Positions 23,929-45,020 of a stretch of DNA of 64,000 nt are shown here, one piece after another. Position numbers and translations under genes: made by a program. The stretch lies in assembly GCF_017302975.1 (NCBI RefSeq), contig NZ_JAFIMT010000003.1; one strand, 5' to 3'. Origin of the DNA: Corallococcus exiguus (GTDB taxonomy: Bacteria; Myxococcota; Myxococcia; Myxococcales; Myxococcaceae). The notes under the pieces were generated by a model. It was not told the origin of the DNA. It did no database searches and saw only the letters and a program-made list of their open reading frames with translations. Position 1 is the stretch's first letter. Every line of letters begins with the position of its first letter.

Positions 23929-24891
23929 ATGCGCGTCTCTTCCTGGCTGTCCGTCGTCACCCTCGCCGCCACCGTCTCCGCCTGCGAGCCGGTCCCCGAC
24001 GATGCCCCCTCCATCCCCACCGAGGTGCAGTGGCCCGGCGAGGCCTTCTTTCCAGAGGGCATCGCGGCCTCGAAGGACGGCACGCTCTACGCGGGCAGCC
24101 TGGGCACCGGCGCCATCGCGCGCGCCAAGCCGGGCTCGCTGGGGGCCGAGGTCTTCGTCCCGGGCCGGGCCTCATTCGGCGTCTACGGGCTCGAGGTGGA
24201 TGAGGCCCACGACACGCTCTGGGCCTGCACCTACGACGACCTGCTGCTGCCCGCGCAGGCCTCGTACCTGAACGGGTATGCGCTCTCCACGGGTGCCCTG
24301 AAGGCCAGCCATGCCATGCCCAGCCAGGTCAGCTTCTGCAACGACGTCGCCGTCGATGCCGCGGGCAACGTGTACGTGACGGACTCGTTCGGGAACGCGG
24401 TCTTCCGGCTGGCCGTGGGTGGGACGGCGCTCGACACGTGGTCCTCGGATGCCGCGTACGAGCCCTCCGAGCCGGGCCTCATCACGCTCAACGGCATCGC
24501 CTACGACGGGGCGAACCGGCTCTACGTCGTGAAGAGCGACACGGGCGCGCTGTTCTCCATCGATATCCAGCCGGATGGCAGCGCGGCGGCGCCCGTGAAC
24601 ATCCCGGTGACGCCGGCGCTGGAGACGCCGGACGGGGTCGAGTGGGTGGATTCGGGCCGGCTGTTCGTCGTGGAGAACACGGTGGGGCGGGCTTCGCTGG
24701 TGACGCTGGGTGAAGGCGCTGGCGCGAAGGAGGTGCTCGCCAACGGCTTCGTGGAGCCGACCGCCGCCGCGATCACGAAGGACGGCGCGTGGGTGCTGGA
24801 GTCGCAGATGGGGTTCTTCTTCGGCACGCCGGGGACCCCGGCCCTGCCCTTCCGCGCGTACCGGGTCGCCGTCCCCCCTCTTCTGCCCTGA
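23929..24891 (+). CDS. Lipoprotein, putative six-bladed beta-propeller (SMP-30/gluconolactonase/LRE-like)
   Basis: RBS GAGGAAAG then ATG 23929. Signal peptide with lipobox (LAATVSAC), repeated YxxD/NVYVTD blade-like motifs. Confidence 0.5.
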   Translation: MRVSSWLSVVTLAATVSACEPVPDDAPSIPTEVQWPGEAFFPEGIAASKDGTLYAGSLGTGAIARAKPGSLGAEVFVPGRASFGVYGLEVDEAHDTLWACTYDDLLLPAQASYLNGYALSTGALKASHAMPSQVSFCNDVAVDAAGNVYVTDSFGNAVFRLAVGGTALDTWSSDAAYEPSEPGLITLNGIAYDGANRLYVVKSDTGALFSIDIQPDGSAAAPVNIPVTPALETPDGVEWVDSGRLFVVENTVGRASLVTLGEGAGAKEVLANGFVEPTAAAITKDGAWVLESQMGFFFGTPGTPALPFRAYRVAVPPLLP

Positions 24892-24921
24892 GCGCGAACA
24901 ATCCTAGAGTCGCGTCCCACC

Positions 24922-29157: not shown

Positions 29158-31599
29158 TTGGCGGAATACCAACGCAGTGGAACCTGCCCTCCGGGCCCGT
29201 CCATGGCCGGATCCACCCGCCCTCCGTATGCTGGCCGGCTGGAGGCGCCCATGGATCCGTTGTGGGGGGAGACGCTGAGGCGTCTGGATGCGCTGCTCGT
29301 CCAGGTGTGTGACCTGGAGGAGGCCCGCGCTTCGAAGCTCCGGGGGGAACAGGAGAATGGCTGGGATGCCGTGCGCACCACCGTGCGCCCTTCCACCGCC
29401 GAGCTCGCCTTCAGCTCGGCGCTCGCGGAGACGCCGCTGCTGGGGACTTCGCCTCCCCTTCCCTTCGCGCGGCTGCGGGCTTCGCTTCGCGTGGACACCG
29501 TGGAGGAGGAGGCGCTGCTGCTCCTGCTCGCGACGTGGCTGGAGCCCCGGTACTCGCGCCTGTTCGCCGTGCTCCAGGACGAGACCGCGCAGGGATGGAA
29601 CGTGGAGCGGTTGCTGCTCACCGTCCTGGGCCGCACGCCTGCTCGCGCGCAGCGCTTGCTGGCGTCTCTGACCGACAGCGGACTCCTGGTGGGCGGTGGA
29701 TTGTTGCAGACGGGCGCTGGCGCTTTTCCTCCCATGCTCCGGCCCGTGGACCTGGCTCCGGAGGTCCGCGAGGCCCTGCTGGAACTGCCCCGGCCCTCCG
29801 TGCTGGGCGAGCTCTCGCTGGAATGGCATGGACCGGAGGTGCTGCCGTCTTCGTCACCCGGGACGTTCGCCGTCGTGCATGGCGAGGGGGAGCGGCTGGG
29901 CGTGGCGCTGCGCCTCGCTGACGAAGCCGGTGTGCCGCTGGTTCTCGCCCGGTGGGCGGGGGCTCCGGAGCCGGTTTCCATGGCCCGGGCCCTGTGGCGT
30001 CTGGCGTCCGTGCGCGGCGCGATGCTGGCCGTGGACATGGCCGGTGGTGAGCGGGGGCTGGCACTTTCCGTCACGGAGACGCTGTCTGGCTTGTGCCAAC
30101 GGTTTGGCGGGCGGGCCCTGGTGCTCGCGGACTCCGCGCAGCCTTTCGCCGTGCCGCACCATGAGGCTCCCGCGCCGGGCTTCGTCCAGCGGCGAGCCTT
30201 GTGGCTGGAGGAGGCCCGGGTCCGGGGACTGTCATTGACGGAAGCGGACGCGGGACGGCTGGCGTCTGGCTTTCGGGGCGGGCTTCAGGAGATCCGCCGC
30301 GTGTTCGACTCGGCTCCGGGCGGTGACGCGGATACGCTTCGTGCCGCTGCCTCGCGGCTCGTCCAGGTGCCTTTGCGCCATGGCTACCGGCTGGAGACTT
30401 CGCGGACGTTCGCGGACCTCGTGGTGCGTGACACCACTCGCGCGGCCTTGGAGCGGCTGCTGTTCTACGTGGCCCAGCGCGACCGCGTCGCCGAGGAGCG
30501 TGGCCTGTCTCGTCGATTCCGGATGAACACCGGCCCGGTGGCACTCTTCTCCGGACGCTCCGGCACGGGGAAGACCCTGGCGGCGGAGGTCATCGCTCAT
30601 GCGGTGGGCCGGCCGCTGTATGTCATCGACCTGTCCCGGCTCGTCAGCAAGTACGTGGGCGAGACGGAGAAGAACATCGACGAGGTGCTGTCCCACGGCG
30701 AGCGCTCCGGCGCCGTGCTGTTCTTCGACGAGGCGGACTCGCTGTTCTCCGCGCGCACGGAGGTCAGCAATGCCAATGACCGCTTCGCCAACCTGGAGGT
30801 CGGCTTCCTCCTCCAGCGCATCGAACGTCACGACGGGCTGATCATCCTCGCCACCAATCTGCAGACGGCCATCGATGAAGCCTTCCTGCGCCGCTTCCAC
30901 GCGCGCATCGAGTTCCCCTTCCCCGAGGTCGACGAGCGCCGCCGCATCTGGGAGCTGATGCTTCCAGAGGGAGTGCCTCGCGAGGGGACGCTCGACCTGG
31001 CGGGACTGGCGCAGCGGCACCGGCTGGCGGGCGGCGACATCCGCAACGCCGCGCTCAAGGCCATCTTCCTCGCCGAACAGGCGGGTGCTCCGCTGGCCCA
31101 GGAGCACCTGGAGCGCGCCGTCGCGCTGGAGTTGTATGAACTGGGCCGGCTCTCTCGGCGTCCGGAGGCGGAGGCTCCCTCGGACGCGGGCACACGCCTT
31201 CGTCGCGTGGCGGAAGTGTTCCAGGAGGCACTGGACTCGCAGCTCAGACAACACTTCCTCAAGGAGGTCCACATCCTCCACGGCTCTCCCACCCGGGAGG
31301 CGCTCGCGGGGAAGCGGCCCGCCGTGTCGCTCGCGCTCTACCGGCTGGCTGTCACCCAGAACGGTGCGCTGCGGCTGGGGCTCATCGTCTCCGCGTGGTC
31401 CCACCGCGCGGAGGAGGAACATGAACTGCTCGGTGTGTTGCATGGGTTGCTCTCCCGTGGACTCCCGCACGAGCTGGATGGCCGCAAGCTCACACCTCGC
31501 GTCCAGGAGAGTTATGACTTCGACCTGCTCCATCGCTTCTGGAGCAGTCATGGACATCCCATCCGGGCCTCGCTGGTCCTCGATGTGGAGATGACCTAG
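29158..31599 (+). CDS. AAA+ ATPase, single C-terminal AAA domain (domain layout like contractile-injection-system ATPases)
   Basis: Walker A GRSGTGKTLAAE, Walker B VLFFDEADSLF, sensor and arginine-finger region; about 480-aa N-terminal domain without recognisable motifs. Start uncertain (M at 29158, 29203 or 29251). Confidence 0.7.
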   Translation: MAEYQRSGTCPPGPSMAGSTRPPYAGRLEAPMDPLWGETLRRLDALLVQVCDLEEARASKLRGEQENGWDAVRTTVRPSTAELAFSSALAETPLLGTSPPLPFARLRASLRVDTVEEEALLLLLATWLEPRYSRLFAVLQDETAQGWNVERLLLTVLGRTPARAQRLLASLTDSGLLVGGGLLQTGAGAFPPMLRPVDLAPEVREALLELPRPSVLGELSLEWHGPEVLPSSSPGTFAVVHGEGERLGVALRLADEAGVPLVLARWAGAPEPVSMARALWRLASVRGAMLAVDMAGGERGLALSVTETLSGLCQRFGGRALVLADSAQPFAVPHHEAPAPGFVQRRALWLEEARVRGLSLTEADAGRLASGFRGGLQEIRRVFDSAPGGDADTLRAAASRLVQVPLRHGYRLETSRTFADLVVRDTTRAALERLLFYVAQRDRVAEERGLSRRFRMNTGPVALFSGRSGTGKTLAAEVIAHAVGRPLYVIDLSRLVSKYVGETEKNIDEVLSHGERSGAVLFFDEADSLFSARTEVSNANDRFANLEVGFLLQRIERHDGLIILATNLQTAIDEAFLRRFHARIEFPFPEVDERRRIWELMLPEGVPREGTLDLAGLAQRHRLAGGDIRNAALKAIFLAEQAGAPLAQEHLERAVALELYELGRLSRRPEAEAPSDAGTRLRRVAEVFQEALDSQLRQHFLKEVHILHGSPTREALAGKRPAVSLALYRLAVTQNGALRLGLIVSAWSHRAEEEHELLGVLHGLLSRGLPHELDGRKLTPRVQESYDFDLLHRFWSSHGHPIRASLVLDVEMT

Positions 31600-31630: not shown

Positions 31631-34600
31631 GTGCGCATCCGTGACCAGGGCCCGAAGGCCTCCGCCAAGGCCATGCTCCGGAAGAACTCCGGGCGCACTC
31701 CCTCGTCCTCCGCGGCCCTTCCCCGTGCTCCGGGTGTCGTTCCCCGGGGCCCTTCCTCGTCCAATCCCGCGCGTGAGCTGGCGGCGCGGCTCGCGTCGCT
31801 GAAGGGTGCGGCCCCCGCCCTCCACGGGCCCGTACTTCGTGATGCCGCTCGTGACCTGGAGCGCCGATGGAGCGACCCAGCGTGGCGGATGCTGGGCGGT
31901 CCGCGCTCGCATCTTTTCGAGCCGTGCCCGGTCCACCCGCCGGAGGTCGCGCTGCTCTCCACGCCCGGCGCCGTCGAGGCGGAGCTGGGCATCCATGGGC
32001 TCGCGCCACAGCCGAACACCGGGCTCGCGCAGGCGGCTGGCGCGTCCCAGCCCGCGACCCTGGCGCAGCAGGAGGAGGATGCTCGACGGCGTGATGCGGC
32101 GCGCATGGACGTCCTGCCTCTGGGCTCCGCTGAGCAACTCGGAGACACCGCCGCGCGGCTCGCCGAGGCCCGTGCTTCAGACCTCGAACCCACCACGGGC
32201 ACCGCGGAGTCGGAAGCGGCGGGACTCGGGGGCAGCACTTCTCCCGCGCCCGAAGCCATTACAGCGACCACTGTCGATGCGCCGAGCGCGGGCGGCGAGC
32301 TGGCAGCAACTGAGCAAGCTCCCGCGCCCGCCTCCATTCCCACGGGGACCGCTCCCGGCGGCATGGACGACGCCGCGCGCATCGACACGCTGGTGTCCGC
32401 GCTTTCGAGCCAGAGCGATGTCCACATCGTCGTCCGTCAGGCTTCCCCTGGCGCAGGGCCCCAGGAGTCTCCTTCCCTCCAGACGGAGGCCTCGGTCGAC
32501 ACGGGTCCCAAGGTGCCCGTGCCTCCAGCCGCGATGGAGTGGCAGAAGGAGCTGGCCTCGGCTCATGCGCAGGGCGTCCAAGGCATCAAGCACGGTCTCG
32601 AAACCGCTCCGGATCCGACGGGTGCCGTCGCGGCGGTGGAGCCCCCTGCCAGCCTTCCCGCGCCGCCTCCTGCTCCGGCGGCACCTGTCACGGCGGGGCC
32701 CATCCCCGCAGCGCCAGCGGTGGGCGCGGACGCGGATCCGGTCGCCGCATGGAAGGGCCGCATCGCCAGCAGCACGGCGCAGGTCCCGGAGCCCCAGCTT
32801 CCTCCCGCGCCCCGCTACACGTTCAAGATCACCCAGGCCGCCGTGGACCCCAACGCGGTCCGCGCCGCGCGCCTCAAGCAACTGGAGGACGAAGGCAAGA
32901 AGGCCATCACCCCGGCGAAGCAGCCGAAGGACCTTCCAGCCATCCCGGACGATCCCACCGGCAAGGCCTCCTCGCTGGTGGATGCGAAGTGCGAGCGGAA
33001 GCTGGAGGTCAAGGAAGCCAAACTCCCCGACCTGCAGAAGAGCCCGCTGGGCCACGTGCCGGAGATTGGCGCGCAGCTCGTGCGCGACGACGGCGGGCAC
33101 ATGCTCATCAAGGGCCCGCTCGGCGACCTCGTCTACAAGCCCGGCGGCCCCAAGCCCACCGACCCGGAGAAGCTCAAGGACTGGACGCGCCTCCAGAAGA
33201 AGATCACCGCCGAGGCCGACAAGCAGAAGAAGGCGAAGGTCCAGCCCAAGGAACCCGCGAAGGGCATCACCGTCCTCGAACAGGCCGCCCCCGCGCCCAT
33301 CAACGTCCCCGACTTCGCTCGCGTGGACATTGGCGACGTGCTGGCCCGGCTGCTCGCCGCTCCGGACAAGTACGCGGACGCCTCCGTCCAGAAGGCCCGC
33401 GAGGCCTATGTCCCGGGCGGCCTGGATGCGTCCTGGGGCGTTGCTCTCATCACCGCGGAACGTCCCATCTTCGCCGCGGAGCTCCAGCGCGTCGCGGACG
33501 CCGCGCAGATCAAGAAGGCGGACCTGGACGCGAAGGTGGAGGCCCGCCGAAAGCAACTGGTGGACTCGCACGCCGCCACCACCGGCACGCTCAGCAAGGC
33601 CCACGAGGACGCGAAGAAGAGCCTGGAGGAGGGCGGCAAGTCGTTCGCTGATTCCCTGTCGCGCATGCGCGCCTCGCTCGACGCGCAGTCCGAGGCCAAG
33701 GCCGCCGCCATCAAGGGCGGCGTCGACCTGACCGAGGCCCGGCGCAAACGCGACGCGCTCATCGCCGCGGTCGACACCAAGGTGAGCAGCTGGGTCGTCC
33801 GGTACGACCAGAACGGCAAGCGCTTCAAGGAAGCCTTCGCGAAGGCCGCGAGCGACCAGATGCACGCCTACGAGCTCGCCGCGCTCCAGGACGAGTGTGA
33901 GCTCAAGAAGGACGCCGGCGATGATCCGGTGAAGCTCAAGGCCGCCACGGAGGCGTACCGGCCCACCAAGAAGTGGATGGACGACCGCCGCAAGGAGATT
34001 GGCGCCGTCGTCACGAAGGCGAAGCGCGACATCGACCAGAGCGTGGAGCGCTATCAGCAGGAGCTGCGCGACGCGGGCAAGGAGGCCCGGGAGGTCATCC
34101 GCGACTGGCACGCGAAGCAGATCGGCTACGAGCGCGGCTTCTGGGACCGGCTGCTCGGGTGGATCATCGACTGGCTGGCCGCCGCCCACGACGAGAGCCG
34201 CGCTTGGGAGACCGCTCGCGCGGCGGAGAACAAGACGTCGTTGGATCAGAACATGTTGTTCCTCGCGGAGGTGCGCCTGCGCCAGGGCGAGGAGCTGGAC
34301 GCGGAGACCATCAAGGGAAACAACGCCCTCAGCGAGGAGCAGAAGGCCATCCTGCTCTCCTACTACGGCAAGGGTGGCAAGGACGCGGTGCAGGCGCTCG
34401 CGGAGGGCCTGGCCGTGCGCATCTCCGGCCAGCGGCGCAAGCCGCTCATGGAGGCCCTGGAGAAGGAGCTGCTCGCGTCCACCGACCTGGAGCGGCTCAA
34501 GACCGTCGTCGACCAGCAGGAGCCCCTCTTCAGCAACCGCGCTCGCAACATCTCCCTCAAGGTCTGGGAGGGAGTGGACCAGTGGGGCACGGACGAGAAG

Positions 34601-37600
34601 AAGATCTTCGACGCGCTCGCCAACCTCAACCCGCTCCAGGGCCACTACATCGAGGTCCTCTACGAGAAGGAGCACGGCCAGAACCTGCGCGAGCGGCTCA
34701 AGAGCGAGCTGGACGACTTCTTCAGCACCACCACGCATGACTGGGACAAGGCGGAAGCGCTGCTCTCCGGCAACGCCTCCAAGGCCGCCGCCGTCGAGCT
34801 GAACGAAGCCATGGAGGGCGCCTGGTTCGGCCTCGGCTGGGGCACGGACGAGGCCGCCATCCTCACCCTGCTTCGCGGCAAGACGCCGGAGCAGATTGAA
34901 GCCATCAAGAAGGCCTACCAGCAGAAGTACGGCAAGGAGCTCGTCGCCCAGATGGACGACGAGCTGCGCAGCGGCGCGCTCAAGACGCACGACGTGGACG
35001 AGATGCACGCCCTGGTGGAGGGCCGCACCGAGGACGCGCGCGCCATCGAGATGGACCGCGCCATGCGCGGCGGGTGGTTCTTCGGCCTGGGCACCGACCG
35101 AAAGGCCATGGAGGGCGTCTACGACCGCATCCGCAAGGAGACGGAGGCCGACGCCCAGCAGTACGGCTGGGACACCAAGACATTCCGCGCGGAGCTGCTC
35201 AAGCGCAACCAGGCCATCGACGCGTCGTATGAGAAGCAATACGGCACGGATTGGACCGAGCGCACCGCGGGCGAGAGCGCGCTCAGCGCCGCGTTCCACG
35301 ACGAGATGAAGGGCGAGGACCTCAAGCTCATCGAGGGCCTGCGCGACGACAAGGGACTCCAGGTGGATGCCGCGCGCATCCGCATCGAGCACACCAGCGT
35401 CTTCTACGCGGACGACAAGATCATCCGCGACGCCATGTCCGCGCAGGGCAGGCGGCAGATCGCCGACGCGCGCCGAGATGGCTACCTGGACATCCAGGAG
35501 CGGATGGACATCGAGCGCACGCTGGACGAGGCGAAGGTCAAGCCCGCCAGCGAGGGCCCGCTCACGGAGGAGGACCGCCGCAAGGGCCGCATCAGTGAAT
35601 TGGAGTTCCTGGAGAAGTGGAGCCCTGAGAAGGTCCAGGCCCGCCTCGCGAAGGAACGCAAGGAGGTGGACGTCAAGGCGAAGGCCCAGGCCCAGGCCGA
35701 TGCCCCCGCGAACATGAAGGCGCTGGCGGCCGAGTACGACAGCGCCTACGTGGAGGGCACGCACCTTCAGGCGAGCTTCGAGCAGGCCGTCCTGATGGAC
35801 ACGTCCGGCGCGGACCGGGACGCCGTCGCGGCGATGCTGACGAAGGGCTACCTCACCGACGCGGAGATCGTTCAGTACGCCGTGCAGGGCGTGGGCACGG
35901 ACGAGGACGCGCTCAAGGAGGTCTTCGCCGGGAAGACGAAGGCGGAGATCCAAGCCATGGCCGAGGAGTGGGCCAAGGACCACCCCGCCGACCCTGGCGA
36001 CACGCGCACGCCCTTCGAGCGCTTCCGCGCGCGCATCGACGAGGAGCTGAGCGGACGCGAGGATTTCGACATCCTCGACATGGTGGACTACGGCGAGCCC
36101 GTCACGCCCCGGGAGAAGGCGGACCGGGCCTGGCGCCGGGTGCACTTCGAGGCGAGCTCCACCAACAGCCTGGCGTCGTCGGAGTACCAGCTGGTGCTGG
36201 ACCAGGCGTCCGCGCTCGACGCCGAGGTGAGCGCGCTGGAGCTGCACGAGCGGATGCGCCCCAAGCCCGGGGACAAGAACTACACCGTCGACGGGCTGCG
36301 CAAGTGGCAGGACGATTGGGAGAAGAAGTCCGAGCGCGTGCAGCGCCAGGGTGATTACGCCGACGAGTCGGTGCAGATGCACCGCGAGCAGGTGGACTTC
36401 ATCACCGACCGGCTGGTGATGGTCCTCACCGCGGTGGTGATGGCGGTGGTGATCATCATCGGCGTCATCGTCAGCATCTTCGCTCCGCCCGTGGGCGCGG
36501 GGTTCTGGGCCGCGTTCGGCGCGTTCATGGCCAGCACGCCGGTGCTGGTGGGCACGGCGGTGGCGACGGCCGCGGTGACGATGCTGACCAAGGCCGCCAT
36601 GAAGGGCAGCGCCTACGGTTGGGAGGAGGCGGCCGTCGACGCGGGCGTGGGCGCGGTGGACGCCCTCACCGCCGCGGCCACCGCCGGCATGGGCACGAAG
36701 CTGCTCAAGCTGGGGTTCCTGGCGCGCATGGCGGAGGAAGGCGGGGTGATGGCCCGCGTGGCGGCGCACGGCCTGGCCCAGGGCGCCGAAGGCCTGGTGC
36801 AGTCCGCGCCCTCCGCGTTCCTGGGCAACGTCCTCAACGACGAGAACTACAAGGGCGGCAACGCGCTCTTCAACGTGCTGGCCGGCACCGTGATGCAGGC
36901 GGCGCCGGGCGCGGTGATGGCCGGGGCCTTCGGCGCGCTGGGTGGCATCTCCAAGCCCCATGTCCCGCCGCGCACCCAGGACCTGCTCCACTTCCGGGGC
37001 ACGCCCAAGGAGCGGCTGACCCTCTTCAAGAAGTGGAAGGCGGAGAACCCCGCCGGGAACATGAAGGAGTTCCTGCGCGAGTTCGACGAGGGCCTGCTCA
37101 AGCAGATGTCCGGCGACTTCGACCGGCAGCAGCTCCAGCGCGCCATGCGCAAGGAGCTGCTTGAGCACATCCCGCCCGCGCAGCGCAAGGCGTTCGCAAA
37201 CACGCCCATCGAGCTGATCTCCGAGGTGGACTTCGAAGCCCTCACCGGCAGCAAGTCCGCGCAGGCCGTCGCGATGTTCCGGCGCGGCAAGCCCACCATC
37301 ATCGTCAAGGCGGGCGCGGACCTGTCCGACCTGGGCGAGGAGGGCCTGCACCTGCTCCAGCGCCACGACAAGGCCACGCGCGACCTGGTCAAGGCCCTGG
37401 ACGAACGGGCGCTGCGGCACTGGGACAAGCTGCCCATCGAGAAGCAGTTCGAGCTCTATCGCAAGAAGCTGCTCCTGGAGATCGACGCGCAGGAGTCGCT
37501 GCTCACGTCGCTGGAGGGCAAGCGCGGCGTGTCCATGGACCCGGAGGAGGCGACCCGCCGCATCCGGCAGGGAAAGAAGACGCTGGAGAACCTGCGCCAG

Positions 37601-39709
37601 CGGATGAAGGAGGTGGATGCGTTCACGCCCCTCGACATGGCGGAGTTCGGCCAGGGCGTGCGCTCGAAGCCGCAGTACCTGAATGAGCCTCCACGGCTGT
37701 TCAGCAAGAAGGAACCGCCCGGCACTCCGCCGACTTCGGAGGCGGAGGGGGCCAGGCAGCTGGAGATGGAATTCACTCCGGCGAAGCCACCAGCGCCGGA
37801 GGTTCCGACGCCAAAACAGCTGGAGATGGGGTTCGCCGCGGCGAAGCCACCGCAGGTGGTCGTTCCGGAGACGAAGCCGCCGGCGGTCAAGACGCGCGGA
37901 GGTGGGAAGAAGAAGGCCCCGGTGCTCACCGTGACGGACACGGAGCCAGTCATCCGGCAGTCCGGCCGGCCCAACAACGTATGGCCCAACACCGTGCTCC
38001 ACGGCGACCACCCGGAGGTGGGTCCGTTCTCCAAGGGGGGGCCTGAGCTGGATGATCCGTACATCAAGAGCGCACCGCGCCAGGTGTTCGACGACGCGCA
38101 GCGTGCGCGCACCACGCTGGATCTGGATCCGTCGGACACGGTGGCGCAGATCGGCCCCGCGTGGCAGGAGGTCAAGTACCGCCCCAAGGAGCTCCGCTAC
38201 TACAAGCTGGTGGAGGTGACGCGCGCCAGCGGTGAGAAGGAATACATCGAGCTCATCCTGTCCAAGCGCTCCGGCAACCGCTGGGAGCCGCGCGGCTACG
38301 GCGCCACCGAGGCGGGCGAGGTGGTGGAGAAGCAGAAGTCCCGGGCGTTCACGGAGGCGCTGCTCGGCGAACGGATGGGGCCGACGGAGCGATTCCGGCG
38401 GCTGGACTTCAAGCCCAGGGGCGAGGAGCAAGGCAGCGGCATCGACGAAATCATCGTCGAGTTCGACCACGCCGCGGATCCGACGAGCGCGAAGCTCCAC
38501 CTGGTCGAGGTGAAGGGCGGAAAGCACGCCCCCAGGCTCAAGGACTTCACGGCGGTGGGAGAGAACCTCCGCAAGAACCTGGACGACCTGCAAGCGCAGT
38601 TGTCGGACCTGGCCTGGACCCGGGCGAGAGGCCTGGGGCCGGCGCACCTGGAGGCGCTGACCAAGGCCATCGACGAGTGGCGGATCTCCATCGAGCTGCG
38701 CGTGGGGCCCATCACCCCCATGCCTCCGCCGGGCTGGGAGCTCGTCGACCGCGTCGAACGCATCGCGGACGCGTGGCGCAAGATGTCCCTGGTCCGGGAG
38801 GTCATGCCCCACGGTTCGGCCCCCCGCGCGGAACTCGATGCCCTGATGGTCGTCTTCCGGGACGAGCTGAAGAAGGGCCGCGTCGGGGCCACGCTGAAGG
38901 TGCTGAAGAAGGTGGAGGCGGCGCTCAAGGGCACGAAGCGCAAGCCAGGCCTGCTGGCCCAGTACAACATCGACCCCAAACAGCTGAAGGGGCTCATCCA
39001 CAGCCTGGACCCGAACGTGAAGCCGGGGGAGATCGCCCGGATCATCGAACCGTTCGAGACCGCGAAGCGCATTCGCACGATAGGTCCCACCGGCAACGTG
39101 CTGGGCTGGGGGGACTTCGACATCACCGTCTCGCGCAGCTGGAGCAGCCGCCGGTTCAAGCGCTTCGAGCTGGCGCAGATGCGGGACCTGCAAGCGGGGC
39201 TGGAGGACATCCCGGAGTTGGACCCTTCGACGTTCAGCACGCTGTCGCTCCGGGACCGGCAGCAGGCCCTCAAGAAGTCGGTGGGCGCGGCCATGGACGC
39301 GATGGGCATCCCCCGGTCGCGCCGTCCACAAGTCCAATTCCAGAACCTGCCGGCCGGGGACTACGGCTGGATGGAATGGGACTTCAACGTCACGCACCAG
39401 GGCCGGCTCGCGCCCGTGAGCCGGCGTGGCGTCATCGTCATCAACGAGAACCTGGACGTGGGCGACGCGGTGGGCACCGCCGTCCACGAGTCGCGTCACT
39501 ACTATCAGGCGTATCAGGCCTACCAGTACTCGATAGGCCGACAGTCGCATCCGTTCTCACGCCGGTGGTGGCGCAACCTGCCTGGCTCCGGCGGCCACTA
39601 CTACGGGCCGGGAGACCCCCGGTACTTCCGGCAGCCCATTGAAACGGACGCGGAGAGCTTCGGCCGCCGCGTCATCGATCTCTTGCCGCCCCGCTGGCCT
39701 CCTCCATGA
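31631..39709 (+). CDS. Giant multidomain protein (2,692 aa): acidic N-terminal region, four annexin-like repeats, hydrophobic multi-TM block, PD-(D/E)xK-like motif, C-terminal HExxH
   Basis: GTG start 32 nt after the ATPase stop; GC3 near 100% in this frame. Annexin-like repeats (GLGWGTDEAAILTLL..QIEAIKKAYQQKYGKEL; GGWFFGLGTDRKAMEGVY; GVGTDEDALKEVFAGKTKAEIQ). Hydrophobic block (VMVLTAVVMAVVIIIGVIVSIF.. through ..AGAFGALGG). GIDEIIVEFD..LHLVEVKGG (D..ExK). AVHESRHYY (HExxH). Confidence 0.75.
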   Translation: MRIRDQGPKASAKAMLRKNSGRTPSSSAALPRAPGVVPRGPSSSNPARELAARLASLKGAAPALHGPVLRDAARDLERRWSDPAWRMLGGPRSHLFEPCPVHPPEVALLSTPGAVEAELGIHGLAPQPNTGLAQAAGASQPATLAQQEEDARRRDAARMDVLPLGSAEQLGDTAARLAEARASDLEPTTGTAESEAAGLGGSTSPAPEAITATTVDAPSAGGELAATEQAPAPASIPTGTAPGGMDDAARIDTLVSALSSQSDVHIVVRQASPGAGPQESPSLQTEASVDTGPKVPVPPAAMEWQKELASAHAQGVQGIKHGLETAPDPTGAVAAVEPPASLPAPPPAPAAPVTAGPIPAAPAVGADADPVAAWKGRIASSTAQVPEPQLPPAPRYTFKITQAAVDPNAVRAARLKQLEDEGKKAITPAKQPKDLPAIPDDPTGKASSLVDAKCERKLEVKEAKLPDLQKSPLGHVPEIGAQLVRDDGGHMLIKGPLGDLVYKPGGPKPTDPEKLKDWTRLQKKITAEADKQKKAKVQPKEPAKGITVLEQAAPAPINVPDFARVDIGDVLARLLAAPDKYADASVQKAREAYVPGGLDASWGVALITAERPIFAAELQRVADAAQIKKADLDAKVEARRKQLVDSHAATTGTLSKAHEDAKKSLEEGGKSFADSLSRMRASLDAQSEAKAAAIKGGVDLTEARRKRDALIAAVDTKVSSWVVRYDQNGKRFKEAFAKAASDQMHAYELAALQDECELKKDAGDDPVKLKAATEAYRPTKKWMDDRRKEIGAVVTKAKRDIDQSVERYQQELRDAGKEAREVIRDWHAKQIGYERGFWDRLLGWIIDWLAAAHDESRAWETARAAENKTSLDQNMLFLAEVRLRQGEELDAETIKGNNALSEEQKAILLSYYGKGGKDAVQALAEGLAVRISGQRRKPLMEALEKELLASTDLERLKTVVDQQEPLFSNRARNISLKVWEGVDQWGTDEKKIFDALANLNPLQGHYIEVLYEKEHGQNLRERLKSELDDFFSTTTHDWDKAEALLSGNASKAAAVELNEAMEGAWFGLGWGTDEAAILTLLRGKTPEQIEAIKKAYQQKYGKELVAQMDDELRSGALKTHDVDEMHALVEGRTEDARAIEMDRAMRGGWFFGLGTDRKAMEGVYDRIRKETEADAQQYGWDTKTFRAELLKRNQAIDASYEKQYGTDWTERTAGESALSAAFHDEMKGEDLKLIEGLRDDKGLQVDAARIRIEHTSVFYADDKIIRDAMSAQGRRQIADARRDGYLDIQERMDIERTLDEAKVKPASEGPLTEEDRRKGRISELEFLEKWSPEKVQARLAKERKEVDVKAKAQAQADAPANMKALAAEYDSAYVEGTHLQASFEQAVLMDTSGADRDAVAAMLTKGYLTDAEIVQYAVQGVGTDEDALKEVFAGKTKAEIQAMAEEWAKDHPADPGDTRTPFERFRARIDEELSGREDFDILDMVDYGEPVTPREKADRAWRRVHFEASSTNSLASSEYQLVLDQASALDAEVSALELHERMRPKPGDKNYTVDGLRKWQDDWEKKSERVQRQGDYADESVQMHREQVDFITDRLVMVLTAVVMAVVIIIGVIVSIFAPPVGAGFWAAFGAFMASTPVLVGTAVATAAVTMLTKAAMKGSAYGWEEAAVDAGVGAVDALTAAATAGMGTKLLKLGFLARMAEEGGVMARVAAHGLAQGAEGLVQSAPSAFLGNVLNDENYKGGNALFNVLAGTVMQAAPGAVMAGAFGALGGISKPHVPPRTQDLLHFRGTPKERLTLFKKWKAENPAGNMKEFLREFDEGLLKQMSGDFDRQQLQRAMRKELLEHIPPAQRKAFANTPIELISEVDFEALTGSKSAQAVAMFRRGKPTIIVKAGADLSDLGEEGLHLLQRHDKATRDLVKALDERALRHWDKLPIEKQFELYRKKLLLEIDAQESLLTSLEGKRGVSMDPEEATRRIRQGKKTLENLRQRMKEVDAFTPLDMAEFGQGVRSKPQYLNEPPRLFSKKEPPGTPPTSEAEGARQLEMEFTPAKPPAPEVPTPKQLEMGFAAAKPPQVVVPETKPPAVKTRGGGKKKAPVLTVTDTEPVIRQSGRPNNVWPNTVLHGDHPEVGPFSKGGPELDDPYIKSAPRQVFDDAQRARTTLDLDPSDTVAQIGPAWQEVKYRPKELRYYKLVEVTRASGEKEYIELILSKRSGNRWEPRGYGATEAGEVVEKQKSRAFTEALLGERMGPTERFRRLDFKPRGEEQGSGIDEIIVEFDHAADPTSAKLHLVEVKGGKHAPRLKDFTAVGENLRKNLDDLQAQLSDLAWTRARGLGPAHLEALTKAIDEWRISIELRVGPITPMPPPGWELVDRVERIADAWRKMSLVREVMPHGSAPRAELDALMVVFRDELKKGRVGATLKVLKKVEAALKGTKRKPGLLAQYNIDPKQLKGLIHSLDPNVKPGEIARIIEPFETAKRIRTIGPTGNVLGWGDFDITVSRSWSSRRFKRFELAQMRDLQAGLEDIPELDPSTFSTLSLRDRQQALKKSVGAAMDAMGIPRSRRPQVQFQNLPAGDYGWMEWDFNVTHQGRLAPVSRRGVIVINENLDVGDAVGTAVHESRHYYQAYQAYQYSIGRQSHPFSRRWWRNLPGSGGHYYGPGDPRYFRQPIETDAESFGRRVIDLLPPRWPPP

Positions 39710-39721
39710 TGAGGTTCCGAC

Positions 39722-40246
39722 ATGCGCGTCGCTCCCTCCACTTCCGTCACCTGCTTCGTGTGCGGCTCCACGTTCACCGTCCACAACCGGGTGGACCTGG
39801 CCGAAGGCCGGCGGACCGTCCTCCAGGAACCGTCGGCCTGTCCCTTCTGTGATGCGCCCCTGCGGAGCATCCCCAGGCTGGACGTGGGCGTGGCCAAGAG
39901 CCTGTTGCTCACCGAGGCCGGCGCACCAGAGGAGAAGAAGACCTACGGAACGGTGGAGCGGTTCCTGGAGCGCTTCACCCGCACGGAGGCGGAGGTGGAC
40001 ACGTTGCTGACGTTGGCGCGCGAACTGGACCTGGAGGCCTGGGAGTCGGGCAACCTGGCGCGGCTCCAGCGGAGCAAGGATGCGGGGCTGAAGACGGAGA
40101 CGAAGTTCGTCTCGAAGCTCCGCGAGGAGGCGGAGGACGGTGGCCTCTTCGAGCGATTGCAGCGCGCCGCGACGGCCGTCAAAGATGCGCACCGCGCCCT
40201 GTGGAAGCACCACATGGCCCTCTTCCAGCAACGGCAGCAGCCGTGA
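39722..40246 (+). CDS. Hypothetical protein with N-terminal zinc-ribbon (CxxC..CxxC)
   Basis: CFVCGSTF..CPFCDAPL; 13 nt after the giant gene stop; helical C-terminal half. Confidence 0.55.
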   Translation: MRVAPSTSVTCFVCGSTFTVHNRVDLAEGRRTVLQEPSACPFCDAPLRSIPRLDVGVAKSLLLTEAGAPEEKKTYGTVERFLERFTRTEAEVDTLLTLARELDLEAWESGNLARLQRSKDAGLKTETKFVSKLREEAEDGGLFERLQRAATAVKDAHRALWKHHMALFQQRQQP

Positions 40247-40261: not shown

Positions 40262-41032
40262 ATGGCTGGAATCCCCGTGAACGTTCCAGGCACCTGGGCC
40301 GGGCTCTTCTCCTCCGAGTGGGGAGAGGACACCCACGCGCGCGAGCTCATGAAGCGCTTCTCGCCCATCGCGCTGACGAAGGCGAACACGCCCGTTCAAT
40401 ACCTGCGGACGCTGGCGGATGTGCTCGCGTCACTCATCGTGTTGACGGGAGCCGAGGAGGCCCGCGCGGCGGCCGCGCCCCTGGTGCCGCAGTGTGCGGC
40501 CGGAATCGAGCAGGCCGGGGGGTTCTTCGACTCGGTGGATCCGCCGCGAGTCGCCCTGCAGGTGCTGTCCTTCGTGAACGCGGCGGAAACGTGCGGGGCC
40601 GCGCAGGGGCTGGTGCAGGCGTCGCCCGCGAAGGCGTGGCTGGAGGCACTGGCGAAGAAGGTGAAGAAGCTGGACGACGCGTTGCTCTTTCGCTGTGGGC
40701 TGGTGGCGCTCTGTCTGGGGGAACCGGACCTGGCGGCGAAACTGGTGGGAGGCGGGAAGCTTCCGGCGACGCTCACGCCCGGGGAGCAGTTCGGCTTCAA
40801 CGTCCAGGGCTTCGTGCGCTACCTGGCGACGGCGATGAAGGCTGGTGCTCCCTCGGAGGCCGTACGGCCCGCGTGGGAGTCCTTCGTGGAGGGCTTTCCG
40901 AAGATCAAGGCCGCGGAGCAGGTCTCGTGGAGTGACCTGCTTTGGGCGGCTCGGGCGTACTTCGTGGGCGTGGAGAGGCGGCCGGTGGCGCGGGTGGGTG
41001 AGTCGCTGCATGCACTCGTGAAACCGGCCTGA
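40262..41032 (+). CDS. Hypothetical protein
   Basis: 256 aa, coding-like GC3, 16 nt after the upstream stop; no recognisable motif. Confidence 0.5.
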   Translation: MAGIPVNVPGTWAGLFSSEWGEDTHARELMKRFSPIALTKANTPVQYLRTLADVLASLIVLTGAEEARAAAAPLVPQCAAGIEQAGGFFDSVDPPRVALQVLSFVNAAETCGAAQGLVQASPAKAWLEALAKKVKKLDDALLFRCGLVALCLGEPDLAAKLVGGGKLPATLTPGEQFGFNVQGFVRYLATAMKAGAPSEAVRPAWESFVEGFPKIKAAEQVSWSDLLWAARAYFVGVERRPVARVGESLHALVKPA

Positions 41033-42546
41033 TGCGCTCCCCTGCCCTTGTCGCCCGGCCGGAGGTTTCTTTCGAGGTGATGGACCGGGTGCTGTCCGCG
41101 CTGGGCTGGTTCCTCCAGTCCGAAAGCCAGACGCCTCCGCTCATCCCTGGTGAGCCGGAGTCCGCGGTGTATGTGAAGCGCGGGACGGACTCGGAGATCC
41201 ATTACACGTTCAACCCGGTGCTCCGGCTGCGGGTTCTTGATTTCTCCGGACCTGACGCCGTGGGGGAATGGATGGCCGTGCGCAAGGCGGTGCCGGTGAT
41301 GGAGGCTCCGGCGCTCGCGGCGCTGCTGGCGTCGTCGGAGACGCGGGAGGTTCTGCTGGGGTTGCTGGCCACGGAGGCGCTACGGGAGCGCTCGTCGATG
41401 GAGCGCGTGGCGGCGCTGCGCTTCCATCCGGAGTTCAGCGTGTCGCGGACCGCGGAGCGCGTGCTGGCGTCGCTGGTGCCGGATGGGACGGAGGAGGCGT
41501 TCGCGAGACTGAAAGCGGAGAAGGAGGCGCACCCGGACCGCTCCGTGCTGTTCGCGCACCTGCCGGGGGAGGAGCAGCGGCGGCAGGTGTTGCGCTGGCT
41601 CATCCATGATCAGACGGCGTCGAATCCGGACGTCGACGCGGTGCTGCGCTCCGCGCTGGTGGACGCGGACGCGGAGGTGCGGGTGACGGCGGTGATGGCG
41701 GCGGCCCGGCTCCAGGCGAGGGAGGTGCTGCCGGCGCTGCGCGAAGCTCGGATGCCCATGTCGACGCGGGAGGGCGCGGACCCGAGGGACCGGCAGTTCT
41801 ATTCGAACCTGCGGGACCTGGTGGCCCATGTGCTCGCGGGCCGGCCGCTGCCTCCGGAGGGTTCACCGAAACGCGAGCGGATGGCTCCGCTGCTGCGCGC
41901 GCTGTCGGGTCCCGCGGATGTTCGGGACGATCCCACGCTGCTGTTGCATGCGCTCACGACGCCGGTGGATCCGGGGCCGCGTCCGGTGGGACTGCCCGAA
42001 GCGGTGGTGGAACGGGAAGGCACGTACCGGCTGCACCGCTCCGGGTTGGAGGCGCGCTGGGTGCCTCCGGTGGAGCACTGGCTGGGGACGGGGCCGACGC
42101 TGCGGCGGATGACGTCTCCGGGGTTCTTCGTTGCTCGGGTTCCCGTGAGCCGGGCCGCGGCGGCCTGGGCGATGGCAGCTTCCCAGGGGCCGGTGGGGAC
42201 TGCGGGGCCGGACGCGGAGGAACCACTGCCGTGCACTCTCGTGGAGGCAGAGGAGCTGTGCTCGGCGCTGTCACGCATTGAAGGCGTGGAGCTGCGGCTG
42301 CCTTCCGGTGAGGAATGGGAGATGGCAGCCCGTGGGCCAGATGGGCGGCTGTTCCCGTGGGGCAATTCGATGCGGGACGACGGAGCGACTCGGGCTTCGC
42401 CCTGGGGCGTGGAGAAGCTCGTGGCTTCGCTTCCGCAGTGGGCGCGGGCGGGACTGCTGTGCGGGGGACGGGAACAGCCGCTGTGCGCTTCGCACCGCGA
42501 GGTGCCGACGGGGGTGGGCGCCTTGCGGTGGGTGCTGGCCTCCTGA
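41032..42546 (+). CDS. HEAT-repeat protein with C-terminal FGE-sulfatase (formylglycine-generating-enzyme-like) domain
   Basis: TGATG overlap with the upstream gene; HEAT/PBS-lyase-like repeats (AEVRVTAVMAAARLQAREVLPALREA); RLPSGEEWEMAARGPDGRLFPWGN matches the FGE-sulfatase core. Confidence 0.6.
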   Translation: MRSPALVARPEVSFEVMDRVLSALGWFLQSESQTPPLIPGEPESAVYVKRGTDSEIHYTFNPVLRLRVLDFSGPDAVGEWMAVRKAVPVMEAPALAALLASSETREVLLGLLATEALRERSSMERVAALRFHPEFSVSRTAERVLASLVPDGTEEAFARLKAEKEAHPDRSVLFAHLPGEEQRRQVLRWLIHDQTASNPDVDAVLRSALVDADAEVRVTAVMAAARLQAREVLPALREARMPMSTREGADPRDRQFYSNLRDLVAHVLAGRPLPPEGSPKRERMAPLLRALSGPADVRDDPTLLLHALTTPVDPGPRPVGLPEAVVEREGTYRLHRSGLEARWVPPVEHWLGTGPTLRRMTSPGFFVARVPVSRAAAAWAMAASQGPVGTAGPDAEEPLPCTLVEAEELCSALSRIEGVELRLPSGEEWEMAARGPDGRLFPWGNSMRDDGATRASPWGVEKLVASLPQWARAGLLCGGREQPLCASHREVPTGVGALRWVLAS

Positions 42547-42868: not shown

Positions 42869-43090
42869 CTACTTCTTCGGCATGCGGATGCTGGGGTTCG
42901 CCGTGACTCGGGGGGCGCTCTTCGCCTTGAAGCTGCCACCGGCCGCGGCCTTCATCGTGGGCCCCTTGGCTGTGGCTCCCAGTTGGGCCCGGGCTGTGTC
43001 CGTCTTGGGCTGCTGCGACGGCGCGATGGCCTTGTTCATGGCCGGCTTGCGGTCGGGTGTCTTCCGCGTCTGGGACGTCATTGTCTTCAT
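42869..43090 (-). CDS. Small basic protein (73 aa)
   Basis: Lys/Ala-rich; start overlaps the upstream gene stop (ATGA) in the coupled minus-strand operon. Confidence 0.4.
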   Translation of the reverse strand: MKTMTSQTRKTPDRKPAMNKAIAPSQQPKTDTARAQLGATAKGPTMKAAAGGSFKAKSAPRVTANPSIRMPKK

Positions 43091-43818
43091 GGGTTGCCTC
43101 CGGGAATGCGTCCGGCGGGGATGCCTTCCAGCTTGAGCGACACACCGGGCTGCGCTGGGACTTCCAGGTCCACCAGGCCCCCAGCGCCAGTGAGGTGCAC
43201 GTCCGGGCCGATCTCCAGACGGCAGCCCACGGCCGGACGTCCCGCGTGGTCCTGGACCAGAAGCCTGCGCCGGTCGTCGCTCACCACCACCGACGGGCGC
43301 CTCAATGTGATCTGCGCCTGCGCGATGAGCACGCAGCGCTGACCCTTCACGCTCGCTCGGACCTGGGCGCGGACCCGGGCGACTCCGGGTGTCTTGTCTT
43401 CGGGAGGTCTGGCGAGGAGCGTGGCCGTGGCCGAGGGTGGACCTGGGAGGACCGCGCCTTCCCAGACCGCTTCGAACCCTTCGTCCAATCCCACCGCCGC
43501 GAGCGACAACGGCACGCGGATGGGCTCCGCGCCCAGCCAGAGTTCGTCTGGCGCGACGATGGCCACTTCGGGCTCCAGTTGGACTTCGGCGATCCAGGAC
43601 CAGCGCTCGGTGATCAGGTCCGCGAGCCAGCCGGCTTCTTCTGGCGACATGCGTGTCAGTGCCTGCTCCACGTGCGCCTGGTCCGCCAGTCGTTGGAGCG
43701 CCGCGGCGCCGTCCTTGAACCTGGCGTTCTCCAATAGGCCGTCGAGCTGGCCCGGAAGCTGTTTCGCGAGGGAGCGCAGCAGGTGGCCCAGTCGCTGTCT
43801 TGGAGGAAGTGCGTTCAT
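43087..43818 (-). CDS. Hypothetical protein (tail-like operon)
   Basis: Start MNALPPRQ at 43818 with ATGA overlap to the upstream stop 43815; the 5' extension shown in the ORF track is not coding-like. Confidence 0.5.
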   Translation of the reverse strand: MNALPPRQRLGHLLRSLAKQLPGQLDGLLENARFKDGAAALQRLADQAHVEQALTRMSPEEAGWLADLITERWSWIAEVQLEPEVAIVAPDELWLGAEPIRVPLSLAAVGLDEGFEAVWEGAVLPGPPSATATLLARPPEDKTPGVARVRAQVRASVKGQRCVLIAQAQITLRRPSVVVSDDRRRLLVQDHAGRPAVGCRLEIGPDVHLTGAGGLVDLEVPAQPGVSLKLEGIPAGRIPGGNP

Positions 43819-45020
43819 CCTCGCCTCCTCCACAGCGAACGGCCGACCATCCGGCGCCGCAGTCGCTGTTCTGCTTGATGGAGCGCTTCGGCGTCTCTCG
43901 CCGTGAGGCGACGGCCGTTCACAAAGTAGGCCCGTGCGCTGGTTTCCATTGGGTGTTCCGGGGCTTCTTCCCACACGGGTTCTTCGTCCGAGACTTCGGG
44001 GCGTGGCGGTGCCTGGACTCGCGGCGGAGGAAGCAACGTCTTCACTTCGATGTGCACCGGGCCTGGTGCTGTGTGCCTCGTGGCCGGCGATGGGGAGCGG
44101 CTGGATTCGCCCCGTTCCTCCGATTGGGAAGGATGCGGAGTCAGTGACTCAGGTCTGTCGTGACGACGGAGCCCGAGTTCCTCCTGGAACGGGGGGGCCC
44201 TTCGTGTCTCCCGTGCCGGCAGTCGGTCCAGGGCTCGGGGTGTCCGGCTCCTCCGTAGCGATGCCCGTACAGGCGTCTCCGTTTGTTGCACTGGAGGAGC
44301 CTGTGGTGGCGCTTGGGTGGTGGCTCGCGCGACGCGATGGCGGCGTGTTGGGGACTCCGGGACCCGTGCGCTGATCCGTGGGGGTTCGGCGTTCCTCTCC
44401 ACGGCGGGTCTCGGCGCCCGGCTCCTTCGCGGACCTGGAGCCTTCACGCGTGCTTCGACGGTGAGAGGGACCTCAAGGGCCTTCTGGCTTTCAGGTTCGG
44501 GCCGGTCACCTCGTTGTGGAGGGATATCCCCGCCCTCGGTGCGAGGACGACGTGGTCGTGGCTCCGCGACCTCCGTCTGAAACTCCGGGGCTTTGGGGAC
44601 AACGGGGAGCGCGAGCGTTTGAGGCAGTCGCCCGTCTGGGCTTCGGGCCACGGGTTCGACCGGTGACCTTGGTTCCTGGAGCTGTGCCGACGTGCCGACA
44701 GGCCGGGGAACGCGACGGCGAATGGGGGCGATGGGTTCCGTCACGGTCGGGACTTCGACTCGCGCAGGAAGCACCGATGGAGTCACATCGCCAGGCTCCA
44801 TGAGCCCCATGGCCCTGGGGCCCGACGGGAGCGACGCGGTCTTCACCGCGCGGCCTGGCTCCCCTTCCCGCCTTCGCGCACCCGGCGTTGGGAGGGACGG
44901 TGGCAGCGGTGGATCCACCTTGAAGTCTCCGCGCTCTCCCCGCTCCAGGGGATGGAGCACCCGGTCCAGTTCCGCGAGCAGAGCGGCCACCGCGAAGAGG
45001 TCATCTCTGGCGTCGCTCAT
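43815..45020 (-). CDS. Pro/Arg/Glu-rich low-complexity protein (about 401 aa)
   Basis: Start MSDARDD at 45020, ATGA-coupled to the upstream stop 45017; long Pro-rich disordered region; short conserved-looking C-terminus (YFVNGRRLTARDAEAL). Confidence 0.5.
   Translation of the reverse strand: MSDARDDLFAVAALLAELDRVLHPLERGERGDFKVDPPLPPSLPTPGARRREGEPGRAVKTASLPSGPRAMGLMEPGDVTPSVLPARVEVPTVTEPIAPIRRRVPRPVGTSAQLQEPRSPVEPVARSPDGRLPQTLALPVVPKAPEFQTEVAEPRPRRPRTEGGDIPPQRGDRPEPESQKALEVPLTVEARVKAPGPRRSRAPRPAVERNAEPPRISARVPESPTRRHRVARATTQAPPQAPPVQQTETPVRASLRRSRTPRALDRLPARETRRAPPFQEELGLRRHDRPESLTPHPSQSEERGESSRSPSPATRHTAPGPVHIEVKTLLPPPRVQAPPRPEVSDEEPVWEEAPEHPMETSARAYFVNGRRLTARDAEALHQAEQRLRRRMVGRSLWRRRG

Follow-up and report, generated by a model that had tools for sequence, protein, structure and literature searches.

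The window analysed here is a stretch of 64,000 nucleotides from Corallococcus exiguus (contig NZ_JAFIMT010000003.1) with a GC content of about 70%, and our subject is a giant gene within it, at 31631–39709 on the plus strand, which opens with a GTG start codon and encodes 2,692 residues. GC content at the third and second codon positions (GC3 0.91, GC2 0.46) identifies this open reading frame (ORF) as the true coding frame, and a 2,457-residue ORF antisense to it is therefore taken to be a high-GC artefact. The gene belongs to a tight operon, in which it follows an ATPase gene by 31 nt and precedes a 174-residue gene by 12 nt; a 256-residue gene begins 15 nt further on, and the start of a 504-residue gene overlaps its stop codon. 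An earlier note, made before any database search, had described a mosaic ORF of 2,692 residues directly behind an AAA ATPase, and both points were borne out. It had also placed three small genes downstream; the first does encode a zinc-ribbon protein, but only two of them are small, the third being mid-sized. The genes of the operon are given below, where c1 and c2 denote two C-terminal domains of the giant protein and CIS stands for contractile injection system.

29158–31599, plus strand: AAA+ ATPase of 813 residues, first gene of the operon, in the position of an injection-system ATPase (Afp15/Pvc15)
31631–39709, plus strand: the giant 2,692-residue protein, read as a CIS-associated polymorphic toxin
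39722–40246, plus strand: 174-residue zinc-ribbon protein (CxxC...CxxC), candidate cognate immunity protein or inhibitor of c2
40262–41032, plus strand: 256-residue protein, candidate cognate immunity protein of c1
41032–42546, plus strand: 504-residue HEAT and FGE-sulfatase-like protein (Pfam), conserved partner of the giant family

Architecture of the giant protein

The segments of the giant protein are as follows, with the basis of the assignment or the key residues in brackets.

31631–33310, plus strand: N-terminal Pro/Ala-rich low-complexity region, residues 1–560 (composition)
33311–34510, plus strand: helical coiled-coil-like region, residues 561–960 (weak ATP-synt_B-type helical match)
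34511–36070, plus strand: four annexin repeats, residues ~975–1475 (Pfam, solved annexins, direct reading)
36392–36598, plus strand: predicted membrane hairpin, residues 1588–1656 (hydropathy)
36599–36955, plus strand: Gly/Ala-rich amphipathic region, residues 1657–1775 (weaker hydropathy; 30–50% identity in distant loci)
37142–37723, plus strand: family-defining core (pre-toxin) domain, residues 1838–2031 (alignments, AlphaFold2 model, identity breakpoint)
37724–38074, plus strand: Pro-rich hypervariable linker, residues 2032–2148 (identity windows)
38075–38752, plus strand: c1, PD-(D/E)xK-like domain, candidate nuclease toxin, residues 2149–2374 (D2272, E2293-x-K2295)
39068–39706, plus strand: c2, zincin-like metallopeptidase domain, residues 2480–2692 (H2619-E-x-x-H2623, E2671/D2673/E2675)

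The protein has no signal peptide. Over the first 100 residues the net charge is +11, and this basic region is a possible loading signal. Residues 1–180 are kept among Corallococcus, and distant homologues align only from about residue 360 on; identity in distant loci is 23–35% over the coiled-coil-like region.

Annexin repeats, proposed at first from the letters of the sequence, passed the profile check: PF00191 matches three stretches of the protein (E=4e-21; 75.3 bits against a gathering cut-off of 25), and solved annexins match it up to E=1.8e-11. The four repeats lie at residues ~975–1045, 1060–1125, 1145–1215 and 1410–1475, with an insert of ~190 residues between the third and the fourth. 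By direct reading, repeats 1 and 2 hold an acidic residue at +39 from GT, as in the canonical type II Ca2+ site: repeat 2 has G1069-W-G-T1072 together with E1111, and repeat 1 a degenerate QWGT with its glutamate at +39. Repeats 3 and 4 have GxGTD loops with altered spacing. An iterated annexin-repeat profile that we built ourselves matched 102 of 104 front ends of the family described below, a figure to be taken with caution because such a profile may drift.

The expectation of several transmembrane helices within about 110 residues held as far as the hydrophobic block itself is concerned; the block is better described as a predicted hairpin followed by an amphipathic stretch, with one clear transmembrane helix. 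That helix, at residues 1590–1614, is very strong (Kyte–Doolittle 3.25), and the second segment of the hairpin, at about residues 1616–1656, is Gly/Ala-rich and moderately hydrophobic. A strong transmembrane peak, lying a median of 236 residues upstream of the core domain, was present in 102 of the 104 family representatives.

The core domain is the best-conserved segment of the giant protein in distant homologues, and the variable C-terminus starts directly after it, with an identity breakpoint at about residue 2040. Invariant positions are E1904, H1907, Q1910, E1925, E1950, D1952 and R2022-L-F2024. The AlphaFold2 model of the domain reached a predicted local distance difference test score (pLDDT) of 84.5 and a predicted template modelling score of 0.74. 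Among 13 members there was no Pfam match at E≤10; no PDB sequence matched the domain, and a Foldseek comparison of the model with the fold library returned nothing at E<1. By eye, its EEGxHxxQ motif resembles the HExxHxxQ of zincins, and the domain was considered as a degenerate DUF4157 or zincin domain; neither Pfam, nor the PDB, nor Foldseek supported this, and comparison with the c2 zincin by hhalign gave a probability of 0.35%, leaving the idea unsupported.

Both C-terminal motifs singled out at the outset, a D..E-V-K arrangement and an HExxH close to the C-terminus, proved to be strictly conserved. In c1, 12 diverse orthologues all retain D2272 and E2293-V-K2295, and the D, E and K are invariant in all 52 c1-bearing representatives of the family (52/52). 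In c2, H2619-E-S-R-H2623 is invariant in the 12 orthologues, and E2671/D2673/E2675 are conserved downstream. An AlphaFold2 model of residues 2140–2692, built from the 12 orthologues (mean pLDDT 75.7), places D2272 before one strand and has E2293-x-K2295 end the next (strands 134–139 and 148–156), as expected of a restriction endonuclease (REase) fold; the modelled c1 is also similar in fold to solved PD-(D/E)xK members. One of the solved nucleases, HamA of the Hachiman system (PDB 8vxy), shares 6% identity with c1, which stands in a toxin tail and not in a helicase–nuclease pair. In the model of c2, the HExxH is predicted to lie on a helix that follows a beta sheet, and a third ligand comes further along the chain, the arrangement by which zincins are recognized, and we propose c2 as a candidate peptidase toxin or processing protease.

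Profile searches added little to these assignments. No Pfam Tox-REase or other REase model matched c1 at E≤1 across the 12 orthologues. The sole Pfam family to match at this threshold was DUF6782, in c2: it scored 24.8 bits, below its cut-off of 27, and covered just 40 residues, in 12/12 orthologues. DUF4157, which had been suggested beforehand, was not detected at E≤1 in the giant protein, and scans of its neighbours did not find it either. PADLOC models matched neither the tail of the giant protein nor the small genes, and for the ATPase gave generic AAA similarity alone (IetA, TRIP13); a reading of the locus as a defence system was accordingly dropped. Micromonospora eburnea RS14790 (Nagakubo 2026) was considered as an experimental proxy for c1 and set aside, its toxic domain being deaminase-like.

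In the linker, at residues 2043–2068 (37757–37834, plus strand), a short peptide occurs as a direct repeat: QLEMEFTPAKPP and QLEMGFAAAKPP.

A cross-phylum family with exchangeable tails

A profile of the region around the core domain (residues 1800–2050), searched against 1.84 billion representative proteins, retrieved 433 clusters at E≤1e-3, 216 of them at E≤1e-30. Nearly all of the family proteins listed are 2,000–3,300 residues long, with the core domain at about position 1,500–2,300; the overall range of lengths is ~1,700 to 3,300 residues. When front ends and tails were clustered separately, using 150 listed representatives of the 433 together with homologues found earlier, 104 long front ends formed a single BLAST cluster and 151 tails fell into 20. 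Among the tails, 52 of the 151 carry c1 and four carry c2; others carry WHH/colicin-DNase or Ntox4 domains, a weak YwqJ-deaminase match and, in one case, PT-HINT. When 185,579 species genomes were scanned with a pattern built on a six-sequence alignment, 39 loci came up, belonging to Myxococcota, Acidobacteriota, Chloroflexota, Vulcanimicrobiota and the Alpha-, Beta- and Gammaproteobacteria, and the loci checked span Myxococcota, Acidobacteriota, Chloroflexota, Actinomycetota and Pseudomonadota. The family is thus a cross-phylum one, with a conserved front end of ~2,000 residues and a tail that is exchangeable after the core domain, which is the combination that defines polymorphic toxins (Zhang 2012).

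In some members, including P0024 and P0035–P0048, the core domain is repeated, with two to four copies per protein; this suggests tandem toxin modules, or alternative tails stored in one polypeptide.

The same breakpoint can be seen within a single genus. Orthologues of the giant protein were found in 19 Corallococcus entries, the best match being P0001 from C. exiguus at 95% identity. P0005, which is COCOR_03294 of C. coralloides DSM 2259, is 90–100% identical in almost every 60-residue window up to residue 2040 and 27–62% identical thereafter. Linker windows between residues 2041 and 2160 show 8–60% identity to five of six Corallococcus orthologues, and 17–67% in P0004, which is of the same class as the query. 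Over the last 553 residues the orthologues form two allele classes, class A with 64–97% and class B with 46–48% identity to the query. In class B strains c1, c2 and the 174- and 256-residue genes all stand at 46–52%, whereas the ATPase, the 504-residue gene and a 720-residue gene of the neighbouring cluster stand at 85–94%. The 174-residue gene is at 46–50% in exactly those strains in which c2 is at 46–50%. Both classes occur in the near clade (ATPase at 93–94%) and in the far clade (ATPase at 84–87%), and the allele classes therefore do not track the flanking phylogeny. We conclude that this breakpoint pattern, as read from the alignments, is the signature of a toxin–immunity cassette kept diverse by selection or recombination.

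The pairing of tail domains with downstream genes was examined with iterated profiles run over all ORFs of the loci fetched. A homologue of the 256-residue gene adjoins the giant gene in 8/9 non-Corallococcus loci that carry c1, in Sorangium on its upstream side, whereas the loci that lack c1, at least 12 in number, all lack such a homologue. In the resulting table, c1 and the 256-residue gene occurred together in eight loci, c1 alone in one, the 256-residue gene alone in none and neither in 13 (Fisher exact p ~3e-5, a value that ignores shared ancestry, the loci not being phylogenetically independent). The 174-residue gene was seen only with c2, that is, in Corallococcus and in the metagenomic locus L044, where the order of the small genes is reversed. 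In a further relative, P0029, the gene directly downstream of the giant gene encodes Imm49 (Pfam), a family listed as an immunity partner of REase-fold toxins (Zhang 2012, PMC3482391). A downstream gene that varies with the toxin domain, as expected of polymorphic toxins, is present here, with one exception among the loci (L046), and the 174- and 256-residue genes are candidates, on the strength of this co-occurrence and co-divergence, for cognate immunity to c2 and c1, respectively.

The 504-residue gene behaves differently. Across phyla and whatever the type of tail, most loci have a homologue of it beside the giant gene, on one side or the other. It is a partner regardless of tail type and keeps 77–88% identity where the toxin and immunity genes have fallen to about 48%; its product is not an immunity protein but a family-wide partner, possibly a chaperone or adaptor.

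The neighbouring injection-system genes

Downstream of the operon and convergent with it, the remainder of the window is occupied by phage-tail-like genes on the minus strand:

43087–64000, minus strand: convergent CIS (phage-tail-like) genes, running off the window end (Pfam and PHROG matches)
43087–43974, minus strand: 241-residue homologue, in the CIS-side cluster
45017–47179, minus strand: 720-residue protein, in the CIS-side cluster
47176–48786, minus strand: 536-residue tape-measure candidate, with the only tape-measure-like PHROG match
48954–50141, minus strand: gp5/VgrG-like spike (Phage_base_V, E=6e-24)
50720–59698, minus strand: 2,992-residue beta-helix fibre (DUF6519 and right-handed beta-helix)
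58324–62094, minus strand: baseplate protein with Tail_P2_I and Kelch (Pfam/PHROG)
62339–63988, minus strand: baseplate wedge (Pfam/PHROG)

Together these genes make up a CIS locus; its sheath and tube genes must lie beyond base 64000. The ATPase at the head of the giant operon matches Pfam AAA at E=1e-24 and contains a winged-helix variant (PF22977).

The same association is found elsewhere. In Micromonospora pattaloongensis (L001) a 1,699-residue homologue lies amid genes for a fibre, a gp5-like protein and proteins of 535 and 815 residues, with a convergent ATPase gene. A metagenomic contig (L044; 51% identity) repeats the layout of the window almost gene for gene, and two more contigs, L042 and L046, have the giant gene as the last of an operon headed by Tail_P2_I baseplate and fibre genes. 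Three further contigs have the ATPase gene and then the giant gene, preceded by unnamed genes of similar sizes. In 20 loci outside Corallococcus, as well as in L045–L047, the gene immediately before the giant one encodes an AAA ATPase. Two features are used to recognize the effectors of extracellular contractile injection systems (eCIS) and Photorhabdus virulence cassettes (PVC). One, a place at the distal end of the locus beside the AAA ATPase, was found in the window, L001, L042, L044 and L046; the other, DUF4157 in the protein or in an adjacent gene, was absent from the giant protein and from those of its neighbours that were scanned.

Most loci from the pattern scan conserve a three-gene module of ATPase, giant and 504-residue genes, with CIS genes unseen in the available flanks, and in the window this module forms an operon separate from the CIS genes on which it converges. 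One relative, P0026, is an orphan. These observations would suit a toxin that works independently of a CIS, either anchored in the membrane or released by lysis in the manner of a bacteriocin, with the ATPase and the 504-residue protein as its own module for export or activation. The flanks in the pattern scan are, however, mostly filled by the giant gene itself, and in every readable 10-kb flank, save that of P0026, tail-like or syntenic unnamed genes adjoin it. Moreover, in L046 and L047 the ATPase and giant genes share an operon with baseplate and fibre genes. A toxin independent of a CIS is in our view quite unlikely.

A second explanation would make the giant protein a tape measure, the alternative offered in the earlier note, or another structural part of the tube lumen, with its C-terminal enzymes as accessories, as in phage tape measures that bear lysins. 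A long coiled coil and hydrophobic helices are indeed found in tape measures, and CIS effectors that derive from tape measures have been described with a similar general layout (Nagakubo 2026, PMC13277306). Nevertheless, none of seven segments of the giant protein matched a tape-measure model in PHROG or Pfam, and tblastn searches with the transmembrane-plus-core, coiled-coil-plus-annexin and C-terminal regions gave no match in 50,697 phage records, nor any against plasmids. The length of the family varies from ~1,700 to 3,300 residues, and polymorphic tails with immunity genes are not a trait of tape measures. The 536-residue neighbour, in contrast, is almost constant in length (535–536 residues) in Corallococcus, Micromonospora and the metagenomic relative, and it alone has a tape-measure-like PHROG match, a weak one; it is probably the real tape measure of the system. 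The searches thus turned this alternative down, and we regard it as very improbable.

Several smaller observations concern the order and limits of the CIS genes. The spike gene comes after the 2,992-residue fibre gene, an order that is unusual in comparison with Afp (antifeeding prophage) and PVC loci and is conserved in Micromonospora. The fibre ORF overlaps the ORF at 58324–62094, so that the true start codons of these genes need fixing. No separate cap gene was recognized in the visible part of the locus. Residues 737–812 of the ATPase weakly match Pvc16_N (DUF4255, tail-cap-like; E=8e-4), and the match is equally faint in the L044 homologue.

Proposed mode of action and relation to known systems

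We think it likely, from the arrangement of genes and domains, that the giant protein is a polymorphic toxin and cargo of the adjacent CIS, accompanied by two candidate immunity proteins. The earlier note had favoured a toxin or cargo protein with an immunity or chaperone set, and its view gains support from the position at the end of a CIS locus, from the tail and small genes that diverge together, from Imm49 in a relative and from the toxin modules found in other tails. There are also points that weigh against such a role. The link of the giant protein to the CIS is one of gene order; the sheath and tube genes fall beyond the window, and most loci of the pattern scan have too little flanking DNA for CIS structural genes. 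An N-terminal DUF4157 domain, the marker of many CIS toxins, was not found in the giant protein by Pfam scans. The orphan P0026, which has annexin and Ntox4 domains, stands alone, with no CIS genes nearby. L046 (GCA_030426725.1, 10001–16645) has a divergent c1-like tail and no homologue of the 256-residue gene within 10 kb; a convergent transporter gene directly follows the stop codon of its giant gene. In Pfam and PADLOC searches the 174- and 256-residue proteins matched no known immunity family. Finally, the membrane of the producer would be just as possible a site for a protein of 2,692 residues that has so hydrophobic a helix.

If it lay there, the giant protein might be the membrane anchor or adaptor of a cytoplasmic CIS, like CisA of Streptomyces or the thylakoid-anchored systems: the hairpin would lie in the inner membrane, the annexin repeats would hold the inner leaflet, the enzymes would serve regulated self-killing and the small proteins would restrain them. 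The strength of the transmembrane helix and the lack of a signal peptide are consistent with this, as are the prediction that a related Burkholderiales annexin protein is 'cytosolic, membrane anchored' (Kodavali 2014, PMC3894181), the precedent of CisA as a membrane adaptor encoded in a CIS locus and located outside the particle (PMC12237407), and the presence of the family in an actinomycete CIS locus. Self-killing, however, explains neither the divergent allele classes across species nor the swapping of WHH, Ntox4, PT-HINT and REase tails, and the 2,992-residue beta-helix fibre suggests binding to an external target. CisA itself, a single-pass protein of 468 residues that includes a periplasmic solute-binding-like domain, is unrelated to the giant protein in both sequence and architecture. 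On balance an anchor in the producer seems unlikely.

For an injected toxin, the domains suggest the following sequence of events. The ATPase would unfold the giant protein or load it into the tail tube, perhaps by way of the disordered basic N-terminus; two reports (PMC11495950, PMC9054023) describe Pvc15 as loading payloads into the tube. After injection into the envelope of a competitor, the annexin repeats would bind anionic phospholipid in a Ca2+-dependent manner, the hairpin and the Gly/Ala-rich helices would enter the cytoplasmic membrane, and this membrane would then be crossed by the C-terminal domains. The nuclease domain c1 would then cut DNA, and the zincin c2 would be either a further toxin or a protease that brings about release. 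Sibling cells would be protected by the 256- and 174-residue proteins. For the 504-residue HEAT/FGE-sulfatase-like partner, possible roles are those of a chaperone for the hydrophobic hairpin and of an adaptor in loading. The presence of two divergent allele classes across Corallococcus species suggests a role in strain discrimination in these predatory myxobacteria.

A more ambitious version of this scheme, which we put forward tentatively and with considerable doubt, is that the front end of ~2,000 residues may be a self-contained, Ca2+-triggered translocation device that, once injected into the envelope of a target, would take any toxin attached to it across the cytoplasmic membrane, with the core domain (invariant E-x-x-H...E...E-x-D) as the point of release or cleavage. 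If this were true, the effectors of injection systems would have a novel way of translocating proteins, and these toxins would be one of the chief places in bacteria where multi-repeat annexins occur.

Afp18 of the Serratia antifeeding prophage is a particle-borne toxin of more than 2,300 residues, encoded after the ATPase and cap genes of an eCIS. It is an insect-active, Tc-like protein that is not known to have annexin repeats, a transmembrane hairpin or immunity genes, and no sequence relation between it and the giant protein was seen.

The toxins of PVC and eCIS loci offer the closest comparison. PVC-type delivery of polymorphic toxins has been described, with a CDC48-like AAA ATPase and with annexins proposed as membrane-breaching accessories (Zhang 2012, PMC3482391), and annexin is listed among the eCIS-associated domains (Geller 2021, PMC8213781). 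Like the giant protein, these toxins are encoded at the end of phage-tail-like loci with a CDC48-like ATPase, a VgrG-like spike and baseplate genes; they too have annexin ahead of C-terminal enzyme domains, and REase-fold and metallopeptidase toxins belong to their known repertoire. The giant protein differs from them in that it lacks the N-terminal PVC-metallopeptidase (DUF4157) and has four annexin repeats where a single one has been described; in its conserved hairpin, its core domain of ~190 residues and its fixed HEAT/FGE-sulfatase-like partner gene; and in having immunity candidates, which many PVC-type toxins lack.

Sle1-type effectors of actinobacteria (Nagakubo 2026, PMC13277306) likewise have an N-terminal coiled coil, a predicted transmembrane hairpin and a variable C-terminus; the particle carries them as packaged cargo and delivers them to lipid membranes, and one member forms a toxin–immunity pair with its downstream gene. 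Sle1 genes, however, lie upstream of the sheath beside a small DUF4157 partner (Sle2), whereas the giant gene lies beside the ATPase at the other end of its locus with no DUF4157 gene in view, and Sle1 has no annexin repeats. The giant protein is set apart from the Sle1 type by layout, the two having been compared by description only.

Multi-annexin proteins with transmembrane segments were catalogued in C. coralloides by Kodavali 2014 (PMC3894181), and those of C. coralloides DSM 2259 and Burkholderiales JOSHI_001 are the same kind of protein as ours and probably of the same orthologue group. They were treated there as annexins, and the combination of multiple repeats with transmembrane segments and toxin domains was read as an aid to delivery; the linkage to a CIS, the core domain, the C-terminal polymorphism and the pairing with immunity genes were left undefined. 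We conclude that the toxin kind is known (Zhang 2012; Geller 2021) and that the architecture is undescribed in the literature searched. The family as delimited here is defined by the combination of a lack of DUF4157, a four-repeat annexin block, a hairpin, a pre-toxin domain at the point of exchange, the HEAT/FGE-sulfatase-like partner and domain-specific immunity candidates.

How effectors delivered by phage-tail-like particles pass the inner membrane is a question to which the family brings a compact candidate, with annexin repeats and a hairpin upstream of swappable toxins. It also provides two new candidate toxin–immunity pairs, and the exchange point after the 'RLF' motif might be used for other cargo.

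Upstream of the ATPase, the neighbouring genes are housekeeping ones on the minus strand, for superoxide dismutase and flavin reductase. Upstream of this pair, at 22862–27645 on the plus strand, lie genes that may or may not have a part in regulating the injection-system locus: they encode a sigma-70-like regulator, an NHL/SGL beta-propeller protein and a 907-residue Ser/Thr kinase with PD40/WD40 repeats.

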